DNA of 64,000 bases from Candidatus Omnitrophota bacterium. Its GTDB lineage: Bacteria; Omnitrophota; Gorgyraeia; Aquiviventales; Aquiviventaceae. This document shows positions 28,612 to 55,681 of this stretch, piece after piece. Numbering within the stretch: the stretch's first letter is position 1; each line of letters begins with the position of its first letter. A model generated the notes under the pieces. The model worked only from the letters and a program-made list of their open reading frames with translations. It made no database searches and was not told the DNA's origin. Both the position numbers and the translations under genes were made by a program. The stretch spans positions 2,692 through 66,691 of the forward strand of contig JACQWM010000029.1 in assembly GCA_016209275.1 (NCBI GenBank). Reading direction: 5' to 3'.

Positions 28612-29640
28612 TCAATAGCTGGTCGGTTCCAATCGCACCTTGCCCCGGAAGATCCAGTAAATGCTCACCGTATACGCCAGCACCATCGGCATGCCCAGCA
28701 GCGCGATGGCCAGCATGATGCGCAACGTCTTCGGCGAGGAGGCGGCATTATAAATCGTGAGGCTGTGCTCAGGCAACGGGTTGGAGAGCACGATATTCGG
28801 ATAGATCCCGACCCCGAAGAGGGCCAGCAGCGCGGCGATGGCGGCACAGGAAGACAGAAACGCTCGGAACTCCCTGCCGAAATAGATTTCCCTGGGGATA
28901 TTGGCGATCGCGAGCATATTCAATACCGGCAGCGCAAACAGCCAGGGGTGTTCCCGGATGTTCACCGGCATATGCGGCATGTAGACCAGTGTGGCCATGG
29001 TCGTGGCGGCATAGCAGATGATGAAGAAAATCATCGCGCGCTGCACCCAGCTTTTGGCCCGGCGCTGCAGTTTGCCTTCGGTTTTCATGACGAGATAAAT
29101 GGCGCCGTGCATCTGAAAAAGTGCGAGGGTCGTGATACCAACCAGCAGCGCGTACGGATTGAGCAAGCCGAGAAATGAGCCGGCGAATTCATGCTCGGCG
29201 GTCAGCGGCACACCGCGCGCGATATTCCCCAAGGCGATCCCAATGAGCAGGCTGCACAGGATGCTGCTTGCGCTAAAACTCATATCCCACATCGCGCGCC
29301 ACCATCGCATGGGCTGCTTGCTGCGAAACTCAATCGCCACCGCGCGGAAGATCAGCGCGGCGAGCAGCAGCATGAGCGCCGTGTAAAATCCTGAGAAGAC
29401 CGTCGCGTACACCATGGGAAAGGCAGCGAAGAGCGCACCGCCCCCGGTCACGAGCCACACTTCATTGCCGTCCCAGACCGGGCCGATGGCATTGAGCATG
29501 AGCCGCCGCTCCTCATCGGTCTTGCTGAACAGATGCAGCGACCCGACCCCCAAATCAAAGCCATCCAGCATGGCATAGCCGGTCAGCAACGCGCCGACGA
29601 GCCAGAACCAGAGGGTGGGAAGATCGAAACTAAAAGGCAT
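28612..29640 (-). CDS. cydB: Cytochrome bd ubiquinol oxidase subunit II
   Basis: 342-aa polytopic protein; [33 protein letters not shown]. Confidence 0.85.
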   Translation of the reverse strand: MPFSFDLPTLWFWLVGALLTGYAMLDGFDLGVGSLHLFSKTDEERRLMLNAIGPVWDGNEVWLVTGGGALFAAFPMVYATVFSGFYTALMLLLAALIFRAVAIEFRSKQPMRWWRAMWDMSFSASSILCSLLIGIALGNIARGVPLTAEHEFAGSFLGLLNPYALLVGITTLALFQMHGAIYLVMKTEGKLQRRAKSWVQRAMIFFIICYAATTMATLVYMPHMPVNIREHPWLFALPVLNMLAIANIPREIYFGREFRAFLSSCAAIAALLALFGVGIYPNIVLSNPLPEHSLTIYNAASSPKTLRIMLAIALLGMPMVLAYTVSIYWIFRGKVRLEPTSY

Positions 29641-30982
29641 GGCGGGTGTAGACGCCGGAGGCTTCGTCTTCCGCCGGTCCCCGGCGGATTTTCTGATCCA
29701 AGAGAAAAATAAACAGCGCGAAGAGCAGGACGTAGATCACGGTAAACATGATCAGCGACGACAATACCGCCGAGGCGCTCACGACTTTCGAAACCCCCTC
29801 GCTCGTGCGCATCAGTCCATAGACGATCCACGGCTGCCGGCCGATTTCCGCCGCGGCCCAGCCGAGCTGATTGGCGATCTGCGGCCCGAGCACCGAGAAG
29901 ACAAAGCACCATAAGAGCCAGCGTCGATCGAACAGGCTGCCGCGCCACAGATGCCACCATCCTAAGACGCTCAAGCCCAACAAGGCGCCCCCAATGATCA
30001 CCATCCCGTGAAACGCTTGAAAGGTGACATTCACCGGCGGCCAGTCGCCAGGCGGCGCGGACTCCAGACCGGTGAGAGGATGCGTCGGATCCCCGGAGAC
30101 GAGCCAGCTCAACAACCCCGGCACCGCTATGCCGTGCACGCGCCGCTGCGTTTCATCCACCCAGCCGATCAAGTGCAGCGGAGCCGGCGCTGAGGCTGAA
30201 TAATGGCCCTCAAACGCCGCCAACTTCAGCGGTTGATGGCGAGCCACCACCACACCGCTCGCATGCCCGGTCAGCACCTGCAAGATGGAAGCGACGAGTG
30301 CCGCGGTCAACCCGATGCGCATTGAGGATTTGGCGAAGGCCAGATGTCGGCGCTTCAACAAATAATACGCGCTGACACTCAGCACGAGAAACGCCCCGGC
30401 CTGCCACGCCCCCATCAGCACGTGAGCCAGGCGCTGCATCGATGAAGGATTAAACACCATCGCCCAAAAATCAGTGATCTCTGCTCGGGCCATTCCACCA
30501 TGGTCCACAATATGAAATCCCGCTGGGGTTTGCATCCAGGAGTTGGCGACGACGATCCACACCGCGCTGAACATCGAGCCGAGGGCGACCATGACGGTGG
30601 AGAAAAAATGCATCCGGGGGCTGACGCGATTCCACCCGAAGATCAGCACCGCGAGAAACCCTGACTCGAGAAAAAAGGCGAAAATCCCCTCGGCCGCCAG
30701 CGCACTGCCAAACACATCGCCTACGTAGCGCGAATACGTCGCCCAATTGGTGCCGAACTCAAACTCCATCACGATGCCCGTCGCCACCCCCATGGCAAAG
30801 GTCAGCGCAAAAATATTCACCCAAAACTTGGCCATCTGATGATAGAGCGGCTTGCGCGTTTTCAGCCACAACCCTTCCATGATCACGAGGATGACGCCGA
30901 GGCCGATGGAGAGCGGCGGGTAGAGATAGTGGAAGCCGATCGTCAGCGCAAACTGCAGCCTGGACAGCCACACGACATCCAT
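29630..30982 (-). CDS. cydA: Cytochrome bd ubiquinol oxidase subunit I
   Basis: 450 aa; ...[12 protein letters not shown]...MEFEFGTNW...Q-loop. Confidence 0.9.
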
Positions 30983-31058
30983 GGGAGTATCCTAGCAAAA
31001 AACAGCCTTCATCTCATCTACAGGCTATGTGCATTGTTCCGGCTGGAATAACTTTTTG

Positions 31059-31088
31059 TTGACTCCGTCTCAAGAAAATACTATTATC
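31059..31088 (+). promoter_or_regulatory. sigma70-like promoter of lexA (TTGACT-18-TATTAT), followed by a 10-bp palindrome CTACCGGTAG (31106-31115)
   Basis: Read from the sequence, 44 bp upstream of the ATG. Confidence 0.5.
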
Positions 31089-31131
31089 GAAAGTAAATAG
31101 AAAACTCTACCGGTAGGGAAACAACCGCAAA

Positions 31132-31731
31132 ATGACGCTCACCAAGAGACAAAAGCAAGTCCTCGATTTCATCAAGAGCTTCATCAAGAAGTACGACTAC
31201 GCGCCCTCCCTGGAAGAAGTCAAAAAGCATCTGGGGCTTGCCTCTGTCTCGACCGCTCATTTCCACGTTCAAACCCTGCAGCAGAAGGGTTTTCTTCGAA
31301 AGGACGACAATCGGCCACGGGCCATTGAAATCAGCAAGAACGGCGGAGCCAACGTCCGAGAAATCCAGTTGGCAGGCACCATCGCGGCCGGCCAGCCCAT
31401 CGAAGCAATCGAGGGCCACGACACCATTCAGGTTCCCGCGCTCTTGGTGCCAAACAAAGGCCGCAAGTATTTTGCGCTCAAGGTCAAGGGCGACAGCTTG
31501 ATTGAGGATGGCATTCTGGACGGCGACGTCGTCATCGCGGAGCAAACCAGCACCGCCAAAAATGGCGACCTGGTCGTCGCGCTGACTGAAAATCACGAGG
31601 CGACCTTGAAGTATTTCTACAAAGAGAAAAGCCGCATTCGGCTTGAGCCGCGCAACCGCGCCCTCAAGCCGTTGTTTCTAAAAACCTGTATGGTCCGAGG
31701 AAGGTTTGTTTCGCTCCTCAGAGGGATATGA
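31132..31731 (+). CDS. lexA: LexA repressor (HTH plus S24 peptidase)
   Basis: MTLTKRQKQVLDFI...; AAGQPIEA cleavage region; KVKGDSL (Ser) ...K dyad; 199 aa. Confidence 0.85.
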   Translation: MTLTKRQKQVLDFIKSFIKKYDYAPSLEEVKKHLGLASVSTAHFHVQTLQQKGFLRKDDNRPRAIEISKNGGANVREIQLAGTIAAGQPIEAIEGHDTIQVPALLVPNKGRKYFALKVKGDSLIEDGILDGDVVIAEQTSTAKNGDLVVALTENHEATLKYFYKEKSRIRLEPRNRALKPLFLKTCMVRGRFVSLLRGI

Positions 31732-31783
31732 AATAGTCTGTGCCCGCTGGTGTTGTCCTTCGGTATGATGGAGTAAGAATTGT

Positions 31784-32698
31784 ATGAGTGTTCCGCACCC
31801 AATTCCATATCAAGGTAGCAAACGCGCTCTTGCCGCCGCCATTCTCTCCTACTTTCCACCCAACACAAACAGGCTTGTAGAACCTTTTGCCGGATCAGCT
31901 GCCATTTCACTCGCCGCTGCCTATCACAGAAAAGCAAGCCGTTTTCTTCTGAATGATACGAATCCTGCTCTGATGAGTTTGTGGCGAGGAATCATTAACC
32001 AGCCGGAGTCAATTGCTCGGGAGTACCGGAAGCTTTGGGAGGCTCAGCTAGGACAAGAGAGAGGGTACTACGACCTGATTAGACAGCGGTTCAATACGAT
32101 GCAACGGCCAGACCATTTCTTATATTTACTTGCACGGTGCGTCAAGGCTTCGGTTCGCTACAATTCCTATGGGGAGTTCAATCAAAGCCCAGATAATCGC
32201 AGGAAGGGCACTAACCCAGTAACGATGCGGGCACACGTCGTAAGGGCATCTCGGCTCCTCGCCGACAAGACACAAATTACGTGCAGGGACTACTTAGATG
32301 TACTTCGAGACGTTAAACGGGATGATGTTATCTATATGGATCCTCCATATCAAGGGGTTTGTGGTGAGAGGGATCAGAGATACATTAGCAAAGTTGCGTT
32401 TGATTTTTTTGTCAAAGCTCTTCAGAACCTTAACGACAGGAAGATCTTTTATATTTTGAGTTACGATGGACGGACTGGTTCGAAAAAATACGGGCGTCCC
32501 CTTCCGAAGAATCTTACTCTAACGCACATCGAAGTCGATGCCGGAAGATCAACTCAATCAACTTTGCTCGGGCGAAACGCAAGAACTTATGAATCCATCT
32601 ATTTGTCTCCTTCATTGGTCGCCGTGCTTGAGAAGTTAACTCCGACAACTCAGCCTCTTGAGCCTCAAGAACAGCTGATCTTCGCAGAGGCCTTATGA
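31784..32698 (+). CDS. Dam-type N6-adenine DNA methyltransferase (D12 class)
   Basis: YQGSKR, EPFAGSAA (motif I), DPPY (motif IV). Lower GC than the surroundings. Confidence 0.8.
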   Translation: MSVPHPIPYQGSKRALAAAILSYFPPNTNRLVEPFAGSAAISLAAAYHRKASRFLLNDTNPALMSLWRGIINQPESIAREYRKLWEAQLGQERGYYDLIRQRFNTMQRPDHFLYLLARCVKASVRYNSYGEFNQSPDNRRKGTNPVTMRAHVVRASRLLADKTQITCRDYLDVLRDVKRDDVIYMDPPYQGVCGERDQRYISKVAFDFFVKALQNLNDRKIFYILSYDGRTGSKKYGRPLPKNLTLTHIEVDAGRSTQSTLLGRNARTYESIYLSPSLVAVLEKLTPTTQPLEPQEQLIFAEAL

Positions 32699-33426
32699 GG
32701 AAAGGACAGAAACTTCCTGCGAAATTCTTAGAGGCGCTAAAAGCCGTTACGAACAAGCGCCCAAGAATCGTTATTGAGCATATCCTCAAACATGGCTTTA
32801 TAACCACAGAAGAGCTTGAGTCAAAATATGGATATAGCCATCCTCCGAGAGCCGCGCGCGACGTACGGGAACAAGGAATTCCGCTTGAGACCGTTCGAGT
32901 CAAGAGTAAGGGGGGTCGGAGCATCGCAGCTTACAGGTTTGCCGATTTCAGTAAAGTTCGAGAAGACCGAATAGACGGCAGGCAAGTATTTTCGAAGCTA
33001 TTTAAGAAAAAGCTGGTCAAGGAATCCAGTTGCCGCTGTTATATCTGTCTGGAGAAGTACGAAGAAAGATACCTCCAGGTAGATCATCGAATTCCGTATG
33101 AAGTATCTGGGGATGCGGCATCCGAAATGCGACATCCTCGTGAGTACATGCTGATCTGTGGTTCCTGTAATAGAGCGAAATCGTGGTCGTGTGAGCATTG
33201 TTCAAATTGGCTGGAACAAAAATCTCCCCAAGTCTGTCTCTCTTGCTACTGGGCCAGCCCAGAGTCTTATAAACACATAGCCCTGAGACGCATCAGAAGA
33301 CTTGATGTGATCTGGACTGACCATGAAGTGGAGGTTTACGAGCGCCTTAAGAGGCGCACCGAAATTGTTCAACAACATATGCCAGACTACGTCAAGGCTG
33401 TGATCAAGAAACACTTGGACGCATAA
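32695..33426 (+). CDS. HNH-family endonuclease (probable restriction partner)
   Basis: CRCYICLEKY...LQVDHRIPY...CGSCNRAKS (HNH/zinc-finger); ATGA overlap with the MTase. Confidence 0.65.
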   Translation: MRKGQKLPAKFLEALKAVTNKRPRIVIEHILKHGFITTEELESKYGYSHPPRAARDVREQGIPLETVRVKSKGGRSIAAYRFADFSKVREDRIDGRQVFSKLFKKKLVKESSCRCYICLEKYEERYLQVDHRIPYEVSGDAASEMRHPREYMLICGSCNRAKSWSCEHCSNWLEQKSPQVCLSCYWASPESYKHIALRRIRRLDVIWTDHEVEVYERLKRRTEIVQQHMPDYVKAVIKKHLDA

Positions 33427-33501
33427 GAAGCAGGGTTTGGTTAGGTTAGTAGGCAACCGCTGGATGATTGGGCCCAAGTGATTTTCGAGGAGGTATCGGG
33501 A

Positions 33502-33711
33502 ATGAGCGGCGGGCAAATCCGAAATCGATGTCATGCTTGCGGCGGGAGTGGAGTGCTGGCCCCTGCCATGCCCTCGTGTAAGATTCTGGCGCGGAAGGAG
33601 CCGTGGATCGTGGTCGAGAAATGCGACGCTTGCGATCGATACGTTGATGATTTGACCGCAGCCTCATCTACCTTTTCTTTGCCTCACAAAAGCCCGTTGC
33701 GAAGACCATAG
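33502..33711 (+). CDS. Small zinc-ribbon protein (CxxC...C...CxxC)
   Basis: MSGGQIRNRCHACGGSG...CKIL...VEKCDACDRY; strong RBS GAGGAGG 8 nt upstream. Confidence 0.45.
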   Translation: MSGGQIRNRCHACGGSGVLAPAMPSCKILARKEPWIVVEKCDACDRYVDDLTAASSTFSLPHKSPLRRP

Positions 33712-33751
33712 TTGATCATATCTTCCGAAAGTATAAGAACAAGGGAAAGTA

Positions 33752-34540
33752 ATGGCAGAATATTCATCAATTGAATGGACGGATGCGACCTGGAATCCTG
33801 TAACCGGTTGCACAAAGGTTAGCCCGGGGTGCAAGCACTGCTATGCGGAGGCATTCGCGGAGCGATGGCGGGGTATCAAGGGGCATCCCTACGAGCAGGG
33901 GTTTAATCTAAGACTTTGGCCGGAGAGACTAGAGTTGCCGCTTCGCTGGAAGGAGCGGCGAAAGATTTTCGTCAACTCTATGTCTGATCTGTTTCACAAG
34001 GATGTGCCAGACGAGTTTATCGGTAAGGTCTTCGATGTCATGCGACAGGCGAACTGGCACATTTTTCAGCTTTTGACAAAGCGTCCTGAGCGGATGAGAG
34101 CGTGGTCAAACACATACTTCTGCTCGAGCGATTATCCCCCGAACGGCAAACACGTCTGGCCGGAGCACGTCTGGGCAGGCGTATCTGTGGAAACGCAGGC
34201 CTACGTCTCACGCATTCGTGATCTGCAACACGTTCCGGCGAAGATTCGCTTTCTCTCAATAGAGCCGATGCTTGGGCCAGTGGAGCTCGATAGCTCGCTG
34301 CTTGAAGGGATACATTGGGTCATCGTCGGTGGCGAGAGCGGTCCTTCTGCGCGTCCTATGAATCCTGAATGGGTCTACGCAATCCTGAAACAATGCAGAC
34401 AGCATTGCGTTAAGTTTTTCTTCAAGCAATGGGGTGCCCACACGCCCGACGGACGACGGGTAGGCAAAAAAGCTGCCGGAAGACTCCTCAAGGGACGGAC
34501 ATGGGACGAGATGCCAGTGGAGCTAACGTTAGTGAGCTAA
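33752..34540 (+). CDS. Phage Gp37/Gp68-family (PF07505-like) three-Cys-motif protein
   Basis: [33 protein letters not shown]... N-terminal signature and ...VIVGGESGP. Assignment from memory. Confidence 0.55.
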
Positions 34541-34548
34541 TAATCCCA

Positions 34549-35151
34549 CTAAATGAAACCACCTCTGGCGATCTCGGAATGGCGGAAGCAGGAGATGACA
34601 TGGTCGTTGACCATGCCGGTCGCTTGCATGTGCGCGTAGCAGATGGTCGAGCCGACGAAGCGAAAGCCAAGACGCTTCAATTTCTTGCTCATCGCCTCCG
34701 ATGCTTTCGTCGTCACTGGCAGATCCTTGATCCGCCGCCAGCGATTGACAATCGGCTTGCCGTCGACGAATTGCCACATGAGACGGCTAAAACTGCCCTG
34801 CGCTTCTTGAACCTCGAGGAAGGCGCGGGCATTGGCGATCGCCCCTTCGATCTTCAGCCGGTTGCGGATAATGCCGGCATCGCGCAGGAGTGCCTGGATC
34901 TTCGGCCGGCCATAGCGGGCGATCTTCGTCGGGTCAAATTGATCGAAGGCGGCTCGAAACGCTTCGCGCTTTTTCAGGACAGTGACCCAACTTAAACCCG
35001 CCTGCATGCCTTCAAGAATCAGGAACTCAAAGAGCTTGCGATCCTCATGCAGCGGCACCCCCCACTCGGTGTCATGATAGCTCATCATGATCTCGGGCTG
35101 GCGGCTCCAATCACCCCACTCGCAGCGCTGTCGCACCGCCCTCATCAGCAA
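34549..35151 (-). CDS. tag: DNA-3-methyladenine glycosylase I
   Basis: ...HDTEWGVP...[19 protein letters not shown]...; start may be 35145. Confidence 0.8.
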
Positions 35152-36200
35152 ATCCTCGGGAGCTGCTCGCCGCTGAACAAATCGAGCATCCGTTGAGAGC
35201 CAATGGCGTTGTGAACTGTCACCTGCGATGGGGCGGCATCCGCCACATACCCGATGAGGGTGGCATCGCGCCCCAATGGATGCGAGCGCATCAGCTCCAA
35301 CGCCCGCGAGGCGTCATCGGCGGCGACAAAGGCCACGCACCGTCCTTCATTCGCCACATACAGCGGATCCAGCCCTAACAACTCGCACGCGCCGCGGACT
35401 TCTTCTTGGATCGGCAGCACGGTTTCATCGATGTCGATAGAGACCTTGGCAGCGTGCGCGATTTCAATCAGGCCGCTGGCCAGCCCGCCGCGCGTCAAAT
35501 CGCGCAGGCAATGCACCTGCATCTTCGCCGCCAGCAGCCGTGCGACCAGATCGGCCAGGGGTGCTGTGTCGCTTTCGATGGTCGTCTCGAAATTCAATCC
35601 CTCGCGCACCGCCATGATCGCAATCCCATGACGCCCCAGATCACCCGAGAGCAGCACTGCATCCCCTGCCCGCACTTGACTCGGAGCAATCACCACACCG
35701 GCAGGCACGACTCCGACACCTGAGGTGTTAATGAACAACCCGTCGCCCTTGCCCTTCTCGACCACTTTGGTGTCACCGGTGACGACCGAGACGTTGGCCG
35801 ACTTCGCCGCGTGCTGAATCGACTGAATCACGCGCCAGAGGGTCTCCATCGGCAGCCCTTCTTCTAGAATAAACCCAAGACTCAGCCAGAGTGGGCAAGC
35901 CCCGCACATCGCCAAATCATTCACCGTGCCGTTGACCGCAAGCCGGCCAATGTCGCCACCGGGAAAGATCAACGGCTGGACGACGTACGAGTCGGTGGTG
36001 AAGGCCAGCCGAACCCCCTGAAGATCCATCACGGCTCCATCATGCCGCATCCCAAGCCAGGGATTATTGAACGCAGGCAGCATGAGGCGCTCAATCAATT
36101 GTTGCGTGAGCTTGCCGCCGCCGCCATGGCCCAAGAGCACAGTTGGGTAGTCTGTCAGCGGAATGGGGCAGGCCAGCGGAAATCCTGTCGTGAGGCTCAT
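35145..36200 (-). CDS. hypE: Hydrogenase maturation protein HypE
   Basis: AIR-synthase-like fold; C-terminal ...PRIC. ATGA overlap with the hypD stop. The track ORF extends to 36374. Confidence 0.8.
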
Positions 36201-37309
36201 GCGACGGCTTCCGATGGTGCGGCGGCCGGCCGCCGATACCGATAGTACGCCGCGCAGGCTCCCTCCGATGAGACCATGGTGGCTCCCAGGGGACGCTCCG
36301 GCGTGCATCGTGTTCCGAACGCCGGACATTCGATCGGCTTCTTGATGCCTTGCAGGATCAGGCCGCTGATGCACTCAGAGGATTCCTCCGCGCTCAGCGT
36401 TGCGACGTCGAACCGCAGCGCCGCATCAAACGCGTCGTAGGGCGCTCGCAATCCGAGCCCGCTGCGGGCAATCGGGCCGATGCCTCGCCATTTGCGCGGC
36501 ACGATCTCGAAGACTTCGCGGATCGCCCACATCGCCTGCGCATTGCCCTCGCGCCGCACCGCGCGCGTGTATTGGTTTTCGACCTCGGCCCGGCCCTCTT
36601 CAAGCTGCGCAACACACATCAGCACGCCGTGCAGGATATCCAACGGCTCAAACCCGGTGACGACGATTGGCACGCGATACCTGGCGGCGATCGGCTCATA
36701 CTCGGTGTACCCCATGATGGCGCAGACATGGCCGGCCGCCAGAAATCCTTGGACGGTGTTGTGAGGCGAGGAGAGCACGGCCTCCATCGCCGGTGGAACC
36801 AGCACATGCGAAACGAGCATCGAAAAATTCGTCAGATGCTGCTGCGAAGCCAACACCACCGCCATCGCGGTTGAGGGCGCGGTGGTTTCAAATCCCACGG
36901 CGAAAAAGACCACTTCGCGATCCGGATGCTCTCGGGCAAGGGCGACCGCATCCACCGGGGAATAGACGATGCGCACCTCCGCCCCGGCAGCTTTCGCCGC
37001 AAACAGATCCTGGGACGTGCCCGGCACGCGCAGCATGTCGCCGAAGCTGCAGAAGATCACCTCGGGCCGCTGCGCAATGGCGATGGCTTGATCGACGAGC
37101 TCAACCGACGTCACGCACACCGGGCAGCCCGGCCCGTGCACCAATGTGATGAGCTTCGGCAGCAACTCATCGATACCGAAGCGCACGATGGCATGGGTCT
37201 GGCCGCCGCAGACTTCCATGAGCGTCCAAGGGCGTTTGGTGATCTTCGTAATCGCCGAAGCGATGCCACGGATGGCTTTCGCATCGCGATACTCGTCAAG
37301 AAATCGCAT
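36197..37309 (-). CDS. hypD: Hydrogenase maturation protein HypD
   Basis: MRFLDEYRD...CGGQTH...GPGCPVC motifs. Confidence 0.9.
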
Positions 37310-54970: not shown

Positions 54971-55681
54971 ATGAGCCCTCACAGCCCTCAGGATCGCGCC
55001 ACCGAGACTCGCGAACCTTCCGTTTTCGCGAACGTCTCCCCGCAAGACGCAGACTCCGGACGAGCGCCGGAGAGGCTCGTGCAGCTGACCGCCTGCTTTT
55101 TGCGTTTCGGCTCAGACGGCATCGAAAATATCCGGCAGCTGACCGCGCTCGCCGGCCAACTGCTCGGCGGGGCCTACGCGGTCTATTTCCGGATGGAGGG
55201 CGACCGGCTCTACGCCCTGGCCCAATGGCAAGTGCCGCCCGGGTTTCCGTGGAGCATTGAGGCCGAGGGGCGCGTGGGCACGGAAGAAATCCTCAACGGC
55301 TGCCAGGAATTGCACGTCGTGCGCCACCTGCCGGCGACGTCGTACGCGACCACCGACCCGCACGTTTCACTCTATCATCTGAAAACCGCCGTCAGCCAGG
55401 CGGTGAAATGCGGGGAGGCATGCGTAGGATCGCTGTGCGTGATGTTCCGGGAGGACATGCTTCCCAACGACGAGGATCGCGCGCTCTTCGCCATCCTGGC
55501 CTCCGCGATCCGCATCGAGGAGCAGCGGCGGGCCGCCGAGCAGATTTTAGCACGGGAGCAAGCGCTGGTCGCACAGCTCAATCAGATCACGATGGACCGC
55601 GAGGATCGTGTGATTGAATTAAAGCGGGAGGTCAATCAATTGCGCGAGCAGCTGGGGCTGGAGAAACCCTACCGAGTTTAG
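54971..55681 (+). CDS. GAF-domain protein with a C-terminal coiled-coil, divergent from the nos operon
   Basis: ...LRFGSDGIENIRQLTALAGQLLGGAYAVYFRMEGDRLYALAQW...GSLCVMF... then heptad-like EQRRAAEQILAREQALVAQLNQI... Confidence 0.55.
   Translation: MSPHSPQDRATETREPSVFANVSPQDADSGRAPERLVQLTACFLRFGSDGIENIRQLTALAGQLLGGAYAVYFRMEGDRLYALAQWQVPPGFPWSIEAEGRVGTEEILNGCQELHVVRHLPATSYATTDPHVSLYHLKTAVSQAVKCGEACVGSLCVMFREDMLPNDEDRALFAILASAIRIEEQRRAAEQILAREQALVAQLNQITMDREDRVIELKREVNQLREQLGLEKPYRV

Follow-up and report, generated by a model that had tools for sequence, protein, structure and literature searches.

A lexA-led gene block in an Omnitrophota contig as the probable local state of a variable defence-gene array

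Methyltransferase and nuclease genes follow lexA

The window analysed here is a 64,000-nucleotide (nt) stretch of a Candidatus Omnitrophota contig (JACQWM010000029.1, assembly GCA_016209275.1), and it contains a block of five plus-strand open reading frames (ORFs) that begins with lexA, the gene of the SOS repressor. With a probability of roughly 0.65, we read this block as the form that a variable defence-gene array takes at this locus; in this lineage of uncultured bacteria, such an array would start at the lexA stop codon and run in the same direction. A sequence-only reading had described the block as a lower-GC islet and a composite defence or DNA-modification island, possibly SOS controlled, and its gene identifications are borne out by profile searches (TIGR00498, PF02086, PADLOC REase_II, and PF07505). 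On its own, the window offers no more than an ordinary Type II restriction-modification (R-M) pair with two leftovers; the comparative pattern carries the weight. The features of the block are as follows.

31059-31087, plus strand: lexA promoter, with a -35 box TTGACT (31059-31064), a 17-nt spacer, and a -10 box TATTAT (31082-31087); 10 of 12 consensus matches
31086-31103, plus strand: candidate LexA operator, a direct repeat ATCGAAA-N4-ATCGAAA that overlaps the -10 box
31132-31731, plus strand: lexA (TIGR00498, E 8.5e-54, with 182 bits where the cut-off is 111; PF01726, 7.3e-20; PF00717, 1.4e-25)
31784-32698, plus strand: D12-class (Dam family) N6-adenine DNA methyltransferase (PF02086, 1.5e-36; TIGR00571, 2.9e-37; PADLOC MTase_II PDLC03341, 3.4e-81)
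32695-33426, plus strand: HNH-type Type II restriction endonuclease (PADLOC REase_II PDLC03566, 1.4e-51 over residues 19-220)
33425-33481, plus strand: 3'-terminal remnant of a gene for a PLD-family nuclease, the roughly 50 nt after the HNH stop, still encoding GLVRLVGNRWMIGPK and a stop
33502-33711, plus strand: small Cys-rich gene, 69 amino acids (aa), a truncated member of a small family, with the ribosome-binding site (RBS) GAGGAGG ahead of its ATG
33669-33769, plus strand: junction segment of 101 nt with no homologue in any related locus
33752-34540, plus strand: DUF5131 (phage Gp37-Gp68) gene (PF07505, 2.4e-103; PADLOC PDC-M41B PDLC04639, 1.6e-102; PDC-M30B PDLC04569, 4.7e-99)

Related loci, numbered here with an L, were gathered by LexA-protein scans of species-representative genomes and JGI metagenomes, after which ORFs were called and clustered and the cluster representatives annotated. 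About 25 loci, in Omnitrophota-type metagenome-assembled genomes (MAGs), encode a LexA 77 to 92% identical to that of the window, and a further group lies at 51 to 60%. In 22 of the 23 related loci, lexA is directly followed by a gene for a DNA methyltransferase or a nuclease, drawn from at least eight cassette types. The next gene shares the strand of lexA in every locus with downstream sequence, and wherever the coordinates of both can be used, the gap between the two is -4 to 74 nt. As a control, the neighbours of distant lexA genes (29 to 44% identity, mostly Chloroflexota) were inspected, and none of 67 same-strand downstream neighbours belongs to a DNA methylase or restriction family. 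Linkage of lexA to nuclease and methylase genes is thus peculiar to this LexA clade, and it far exceeds chance. The cassettes that follow lexA include these.

Window and L083: D12 methyltransferase and HNH nuclease
L086, L091, L092, L095, and L101: two D12 methyltransferases, followed in L101 by a PLD/NgoFVII-like enzyme
L003, L005, L096, L113, and L094: PLD (DrmC-like) nuclease
L085 and L119: N4/N6 methyltransferase and MTaX1-HNH
L087 and L088: DpnI-like methyl-directed enzyme
L089, L090, L004, L084, and L103: large N6 methyltransferase, with or without an Eco57I-like enzyme or a PLD restriction endonuclease
L097: DUF1156 methyltransferase

Further downstream, the related loci carry genes for TIR, ThsB-TIR, PifA-like, DUF3800, SIR2-like, and AbiEi proteins, as well as the pair TcmP-DUF5131. 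The same small gene follows five different first cassettes, and the same DUF5131 gene (90 to 92% nt identity) follows TIR plus TcmP, DpnI-like plus TcmP, or a PifA-like gene. The composite island proposed earlier thus stands as a defence-type island, R-M, PLD, TIR, PifA-like, and TcmP-DUF5131 genes occupying the same place in relatives, but it is not one module, as its parts vary independently. A stricter form of that proposal holds that the five genes are a single co-adapted defence or DNA-modification system, in which, for example, DUF5131 and the small protein modify DNA beside the R-M pair. Tight packing on one strand fits this, as does the frequent position of DUF5131 members near R-M genes elsewhere (Type III in L166, Eco57I-like in L163), and PADLOC lists the TcmP-DUF5131 pair as candidates PDC-M30 and PDC-M41. 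We consider such a system very unlikely, however, given the independent assortment of DUF5131 over three contexts and of the small gene over five cassettes, the truncation of the small gene and the missing TcmP in the window, and an R-M pair that stands alone on a plasmid.

Defence hotspots flanked by conserved genes are known in Escherichia coli, Pseudomonas, Vibrio, and P2/P4 elements. The array resembles them in that conserved genes frame highly variable defence cargo at the same position. It differs in having lexA as its left frame, with cargo that begins from the last lexA codons on the same strand and at operon-like spacing, in having internal conserved "punctuation" genes (the small Cys-rich gene and DUF5131), and in having no integrase or tRNA. 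Exchangeable defence genes stand behind a damage-sensing repressor in about two dozen independent metagenomic loci, and related loci have that repressor joined to a methyltransferase. Regulation of defence systems is still an open problem, and if expression follows LexA, these loci would be a natural case of damage-inducible restriction and defence.

Proposed exchange of cassettes and the state of the window copy

At the DNA level, the window and L005 are homologous in three segments only: lexA (31137-31725, 86%), a segment made up of the small gene and 77 nt upstream of it (33425-33668, 81%), and DUF5131 (33770-34541, 92%). The closest relative, L083, is collinear with the window over 31052-33668 at 90.7% and then diverges. 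Variability starts within the last 1 to 6 codons of lexA, and each cassette type has its own lexA tail and intergenic region, a pattern that fits exchange by homologous recombination inside lexA. We propose that cassettes are most likely swapped in this way, with lexA, the small gene, and DUF5131 serving as conserved arms.

An arrangement identical to that of the window recurs in two Logan contigs, L001 and L002, which stem from independent public assemblies of SRR12113390 and SRR12113385, and the block is therefore not an assembly artefact of this record. Both contigs break 70 to 90 nt before the lexA stop because cassette variability starts there. These left-end breaks suggest that the source samples contain several cassette variants following the same lexA. 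Between the window and L005, L087, L088, and L097, the synonymous divergence (dS) of DUF5131, 0.30 to 0.41, is lower than that of lexA, 0.54 to 1.11, which hints that the distal array was exchanged between lineages more recently than lexA diverged.

The first part of the array in the window is the R-M pair. The methyltransferase has a DPPY motif (YMDPPYQG) and a third-codon-position GC content (GC3) of 0.47. In the HNH nuclease, the N terminus is a winged-helix-like region, and the match to the HNH family PF01844 is weak (5e-4) and below the Pfam cut-off. No meaningful relatives of this protein are found among Protein Data Bank (PDB) sequences. Read directly in the sequence, the methyltransferase stop and the HNH start overlap as ATGA, and the two genes would be translationally coupled. 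A 7-kb Hymenobacter plasmid, pHsw3, encodes a Dam-family methyltransferase followed by an HNH protein 52% identical to the window nuclease, and the nuclease also matches an Aeromonas plasmid. The earlier assignment of an ATGA-coupled, Type II R-M-like pair is thus supported by the overlap, by the pair on pHsw3, and by PADLOC, a search that the sequence-only reading had proposed and that matches MTase_II, REase_II, and PDC-M41B/PDC-M30B in the block.

The pair is foreign in composition, with a GC3 of 0.47 to 0.49 against 0.71 to 0.79 in adjacent and 0.71 to 0.90 in flanking genes. As the same pair also occurs on the Hymenobacter plasmid, we take the two genes to be a horizontally acquired Type II R-M pair with predicted activities and, judging from these sequences, a mobile unit in its own right. 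The D12 enzyme would methylate adenine in host DNA, and the HNH enzyme would cut incoming DNA that is unmethylated. Like known Type II systems that combine a D12 N6-adenine methyltransferase with an HNH (beta-beta-alpha-metal) endonuclease, the pair has a two-gene, M-then-R order with a stop/start overlap. Unlike them, it has no C (controller) gene, and it lies directly behind lexA with no recognizable promoter of its own. Palindrome avoidance in the window gives no target signal and is uninformative (GATC ratio 0.93, CATG 0.99).

Immediately after the HNH gene lies the second part of the array, the PLD remnant at 33425-33481. The PLD genes of L005, L096, and L113 align with it at their 3' ends, and it is also present in L083. 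This scar indicates that the R-M pair replaced a PLD nuclease gene almost exactly, and the roughly 50 nt are what is left of the displaced gene.

The third part is the small Cys-rich gene, which belongs to no family in profile searches of Pfam, PADLOC, and NCBIfam. Its homology to every relative ends at 33668. The relatives are 82 to 97 aa long and continue with a conserved tail, A-G-W-F-x-C-x2-G-x-E-H-A-L-A; this tail is missing from the window copy. Among 1.84 billion representative proteins searched, the family has only 82 clusters, typically of 80 to 120 aa, in which no alignment extends past query residue 62 save that of a weak outlier, P0419 (E 5e-6), which reaches residue 67; all sampled members have the W-F-x-C...H-A-L motif. 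Because homology stops early and the C-terminal motif W-F-x-C-x2-G-G-x-H-A-L is missing, the window gene is a truncated, re-tailed copy. The length of 69 aa and the strong RBS given in the sequence-only reading are correct, while its complete zinc ribbon becomes a truncated family member. In the place of the small gene, L087 (1571-1861) and L088 (9450-9740) have a 96-aa CarS-SH3-like protein (PF18354, 5e-8) before TcmP-DUF5131. In L090 (6029-8293), the small Cys-rich gene is followed by a tandem duplication (c24-c25-c24-c25) of a two-gene unit, in which a ThsB-like TIR gene (PF08937, 3.9e-20) is paired with an unannotated gene for a protein of about 190 to 230 aa.

The junction segment at 33669-33769 supplies the new tail of the small gene, the RBS of DUF5131, and the first six DUF5131 codons. 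Correspondingly, homology of DUF5131 to all five other loci that carry it starts at 33770, six codons in. A TcmP remnant in this segment was considered after MAFFT showed a resemblance, and it was rejected when Smith-Waterman alignments with shuffles proved inconsistent and nonsignificant.

The fourth part is the DUF5131 gene. It is full length and 92% identical to the copy in L005, keeps every family-invariant residue, and has a ratio of nonsynonymous to synonymous divergence (dN/dS) of 0.11 to 0.15. TcmP (TIGR04474, 1.5e-41; PADLOC PDC-M41A) is encoded directly upstream of DUF5131 in L005, L087, L088, L163, L164/5, and L166/7, the last three being unrelated contexts. None of the window proteins matches PDC-M41A, PDC-M30A, or TIGR04474, and a tblastn search with TcmP, which finds it in other loci, does not find it in L001 and L002, the copies of the window locus. 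From these comparisons, the window DUF5131 is intact and has lost its usual partner TcmP. In terms of the PADLOC candidates PDC-M41 and PDC-M30 (TcmP plus DUF5131), the window protein matches the B component at E of about 1e-100, and the full pair is present in L005, L087, and L088; the window is incomplete, lacking the A component TcmP.

With a truncated small gene, a missing TcmP, a PLD scar, an unexplained 101-nt junction, and a mutated operator repeat, the block might instead be a decaying remnant with no current function beyond lexA, its adjacency to lexA being neutral. This is unlikely. The methyltransferase, HNH, and DUF5131 frames are full length with motifs and family-invariant residues kept, the dN/dS of DUF5131 is low, and the identical arrangement comes from two independent metagenome assemblies. 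Moreover, neutral adjacency would not give a methyltransferase or nuclease gene in 22 of 23 related loci and in none of the 67 controls.

Probable transcription of the array from the lexA promoter

LexA of the window has an N-terminal winged-helix DNA-binding domain and a C-terminal S24 self-cleaving peptidase domain, and its translation carries the Ala-Gly cleavage site (IAAGQP), the Ser (GDSL, within KGDSL), and the Lys (TLKYF). Its dN/dS against relatives is 0.08 to 0.13. An exact look-up of the protein in a contig index returned no record.

A promoter TTGACT-18-TATTAT had been proposed for lexA. Both boxes are present, with a spacer of 17 nt rather than 18, and the promoter block is conserved in about 20 related loci. 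The repeat ATCGAAA-N4-ATCGAAA at this promoter, to which LexA would bind, has a single exact copy in each of 21 related loci, invariably right ahead of lexA. Its form is ATCGAAAGTAAATCGAAA compared with ...AATAGAAA in the window, where the operator copy reads ATCGAAAGTAAATAGAAA, with a C to A change in the second repeat. A fixed-spacer search finds this single copy, with one mismatch, in the window. The leader between operator and lexA ATG is longer in the window than in most relatives. In L099, a locus with a fused LexA, a literal GTTCTAAAAATGTTC lies between the -35 and -10 boxes. The LexA box of Alphaproteobacteria is a direct repeat, GTTC-N7-GTTC, and the 11-bp period of ATCGAAA-N4-ATCGAAA recalls it. 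The repeat is a candidate LexA box for a phylum without a cultured model.

We find no second LexA box ahead of the methyltransferase, small, or DUF5131 genes, either in the window (fixed spacer) or in the related arrays. The check for such boxes that had been suggested for the methyltransferase and Gp37 (DUF5131) genes is therefore negative, and the repeat is confined to the lexA promoter. Free-spacer matches in the window are at the chance level (4 found, 4.3 expected) and were discarded. No terminator is predicted between lexA and the methyltransferase gene; the intergenic RNA there forms no stable structure, folding no better than shuffled sequences (z = -0.03), and no Rfam family is matched.

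Gene spacing, orientation, and the lack of a predicted terminator are compatible with cotranscription from the lexA promoter. No promoter, terminator, or second operator is recognizable for the cassettes, and the LexA-repressed promoter of lexA therefore probably drives them, in which case expression would be low with intact LexA and raised after DNA damage. As the only LexA-box-like element is that of the lexA promoter, the cassettes could plausibly come under SOS control solely by read-through from it.

Colicins, integron integrases, the tisB/symE toxins, and CapH/CapP control of CBASS are examples of accessory functions under SOS or LexA-like control. The array shares with SOS-regulated accessory functions (PMC3874152) a DNA-damage-sensing repressor ahead of accessory or toxic genes. 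It differs from them in that R-M and other defence genes would form the cargo, placed within the lexA operon, and in that a sister clade of this lineage fuses LexA to a methyltransferase.

LexA-methyltransferase fusions and the standing of lexA

A complete LexA is fused in frame to an N4/N6 DNA methyltransferase in proteins of 636 to 713 aa at three loci and probably at a fourth, L102.

L006, 2037-3947: LexA-methyltransferase fusion
L099, 7773-9914: LexA-methyltransferase fusion
L100, 2600-4516: LexA-methyltransferase fusion
L102, 1183-2166: probable fusion, running off the contig

In the fusions, LexA keeps its DNA-binding and S24 domains as well as the Ala-Gly site and both the Ser and the Lys, and a BsoBI-family endonuclease gene is convergent to the fusion gene. 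In a large protein database, eight fusion clusters at 90% identity (P0121-P0128) are 65 to 70% identical to the query fusion. Since there are eight such clusters, one of them on a 178-kb contig, the fusion is real and maintained. Going by these protein sequences, it strengthens the view that the link between LexA and R-M genes would be functional, and not merely positional, in the wider lineage. In the literature searched, we find nothing on lexA-linked R-M, a LexA-methyltransferase fusion, or Omnitrophota LexA.

More tentatively, and as a possibility that goes beyond the array itself, LexA may have come to control an operon into which defence genes are swapped. Such genes, R-M systems among them, would be repressed to a low level by LexA and induced when RecA responds to DNA damage or to replicating phage; in the sister clade, this link would have been hard-wired by joining the methyltransferase of a BsoBI-like R-M pair to a LexA that is complete and self-cleavable, and ATCGAAA-N4-ATCGAAA would be the LexA box of the lineage.

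Several points weigh against an array anchored on lexA and controlled from its promoter. The locus sample comes from pattern-based scans limited to 600 candidates and is not an exhaustive census. The C to A change lies at an operator position that is invariant in 21 relatives and may weaken repression by LexA in the window, and there may be a weak internal promoter ahead of the methyltransferase gene. An empty site, sought through relatives of the flanking Tag protein, was not found, which is uninformative, as the best relatives are at most 75% identical and nonsyntenic. The structural model of DUF5131 is only of moderate quality (pLDDT 72), and its radical SAM fold matches are weak (E > 6e-3). 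Finally, lexA may not be a fixed anchor on the chromosome but may move along with the array: in five related loci its GC3 is 0.60 to 0.74 compared with 0.75 to 0.88 in flanking core genes, that is, 0.1 to 0.2 lower, and its upstream neighbours differ, being cydA in the window, smpB in L083, and suf genes in L005, L088, and L094.

Taken further, this last point leads to a different account, in which lexA is not the resident SOS repressor but the first gene and dedicated controller of a mobile defence island, possibly analogous to the C proteins of R-M systems, and the unit from lexA promoter to DUF5131 moves as a whole. Homology between loci starts just upstream of the -35 box (31048-31052) and ends, in the window, at the DUF5131 stop, as such a unit would predict. 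The varying upstream neighbours and the consistently lower GC3 of lexA are also in its favour, as is the fusion of complete LexA to an R-M methyltransferase in L006, L099, L100, and the eight protein clusters. Other evidence makes this account the less likely one. Three loci share a suf-operon (nifU/Fe-S-assembly) flank, and synteny is poor in this phylum anyway. The window LexA scores well above the NCBIfam equivalog cut-off, and no integrase, transposase, tRNA, or flanking repeats were found. The dS of lexA (0.48 to 1.11) exceeds that of DUF5131 (0.30 to 0.41), which fits an older, resident lexA with exchanged distal genes. We rate the variable array behind lexA as the more probable description of the block.

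DUF5131 and its partner TcmP

The identification of a PF07505-like, three-Cys protein is upheld by the family match and by the invariant Cys residues C20, C27, and C30, which form the motif Cx6CxxC and are followed by Tyr. In the SFLD and RadicalSAM.org classifications, DUF5131 is a radical SAM subgroup (megacluster 5-2), next to spore photoproduct lyase (PMC9477430). Possible likenesses of the protein to this superfamily are its three invariant Cys residues followed by an aromatic residue and a predicted alpha/beta barrel-like core; its motif differs, being Cx6CxxC and not CxxxCxxC. The AlphaFold (AF2) model (pLDDT 72, pTM 0.73) has no Foldseek match at E <= 0.001. The weak matches beyond E 6e-3 include spore photoproduct lyase (4rh0, probability 0.87, TM 0.36), viperin, and RlmN, mixed with unrelated TIM barrels. 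Searches against the PDB, with DUF5131 as a single sequence and as a 30-sequence profile and with TcmP, gave no sequence relative. In the literature searched, DUF5131, PF07505, TcmP, and PDC-M30/M41 appear only in lists, and no functional test was found. In the array, the gene would contribute a radical-SAM-superfamily-like Fe-S protein separated from its usual upstream partner; our guess, held with low confidence, is that DUF5131 is an Fe-S, S-adenosylmethionine-using enzyme that may act on nucleic acid, normally with TcmP. The array places DUF5131 and TcmP in a defined, testable context.

The DUF5131 family is very large, with at least 8,000 scored candidates, all at E <= 1e-10, and the best 120 matches are 63 to 92% identical to the window protein. 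The family is also highly conserved, with 65 to 70% identity among the top database matches. Only a few matches have a source named by NCBI, and these are MAGs from different phyla (Bacteroidota and Thermodesulfobacteriota). Members also occur in 181 phage records, mostly of Mycobacterium and Gordonia phages, and in at least 591 IMG/VR contigs. A TcmP-like neighbour is present in only 28 of 80 sampled viral contigs, and solo copies of DUF5131 are therefore common. In L097 (14591-15415) and L098, the gene directly upstream of DUF5131 encodes a 274-aa protein with no BLAST, Pfam, or PADLOC likeness to TcmP, and it may represent a different family of DUF5131 partners. Genes expressed from prophages usually sit in the integrase/repressor region. 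In the temperate Gordonia phage Fairfaxidum (L168; NC_048185.1, 32933-34874), DUF5131 lies between integrase/metalloprotease genes and a convergent gene for a 398-aa "methyltransferase" that adjoins the immunity repressor.

Composition and flanking genes

The GC content of the block is lower than that of its surroundings, as the sequence-only reading had noted, with 0.51, 0.48, and 0.50 in the three 1-kb bins of 31001-34000 compared with a window mean of 0.61. The drop is uneven, however. GC3 is 0.47 to 0.49 in the methyltransferase and HNH genes, 0.59 to 0.60 in the small gene and DUF5131, and 0.705 in lexA, the last of these near the 0.71 to 0.79 of the neighbouring cydAB, tag, and hypDE. 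Mobile-element signatures were sought at the block; there is no integrase, transposase, or tRNA, and flanking repeats are not above chance. Outside the block, the following genes bear on its setting.

29630-30982, minus strand: cydA (cytochrome bd subunit I), left flank, divergent from lexA; GC3 0.77, core-like; named from reading its translation
34549-35151, minus strand: tag (DNA-3-methyladenine glycosylase I), right flank (PF03352, 8.6e-81); GC3 0.74
54971-55681, plus strand: probable extra gene, 236 aa; GC3 0.78, weak GAF match, overlapping no minus-strand gene

The cydA product has a 40%-identical match in L041, beside a cydB-like gene. On the right, tag is convergent with DUF5131, and the two stops are 8 nt apart. 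NCBI lists an identical Tag protein for a Candidatus Omnitrophica MAG, and comparison of Tag relatives shows that synteny is poor in this phylum generally. The tag gene overlaps the end of hypE (35145-36374, minus strand) and is seemingly the last gene of a hypF-C-D-E hydrogenase-maturation operon, where it is an unusual partner; Tag relatives at 69 to 75% identity have no adjacent hyp genes. The block had also been called the only plus-strand block in the window, which is probably wrong, as the ORF at 54971-55681 is gene-like.

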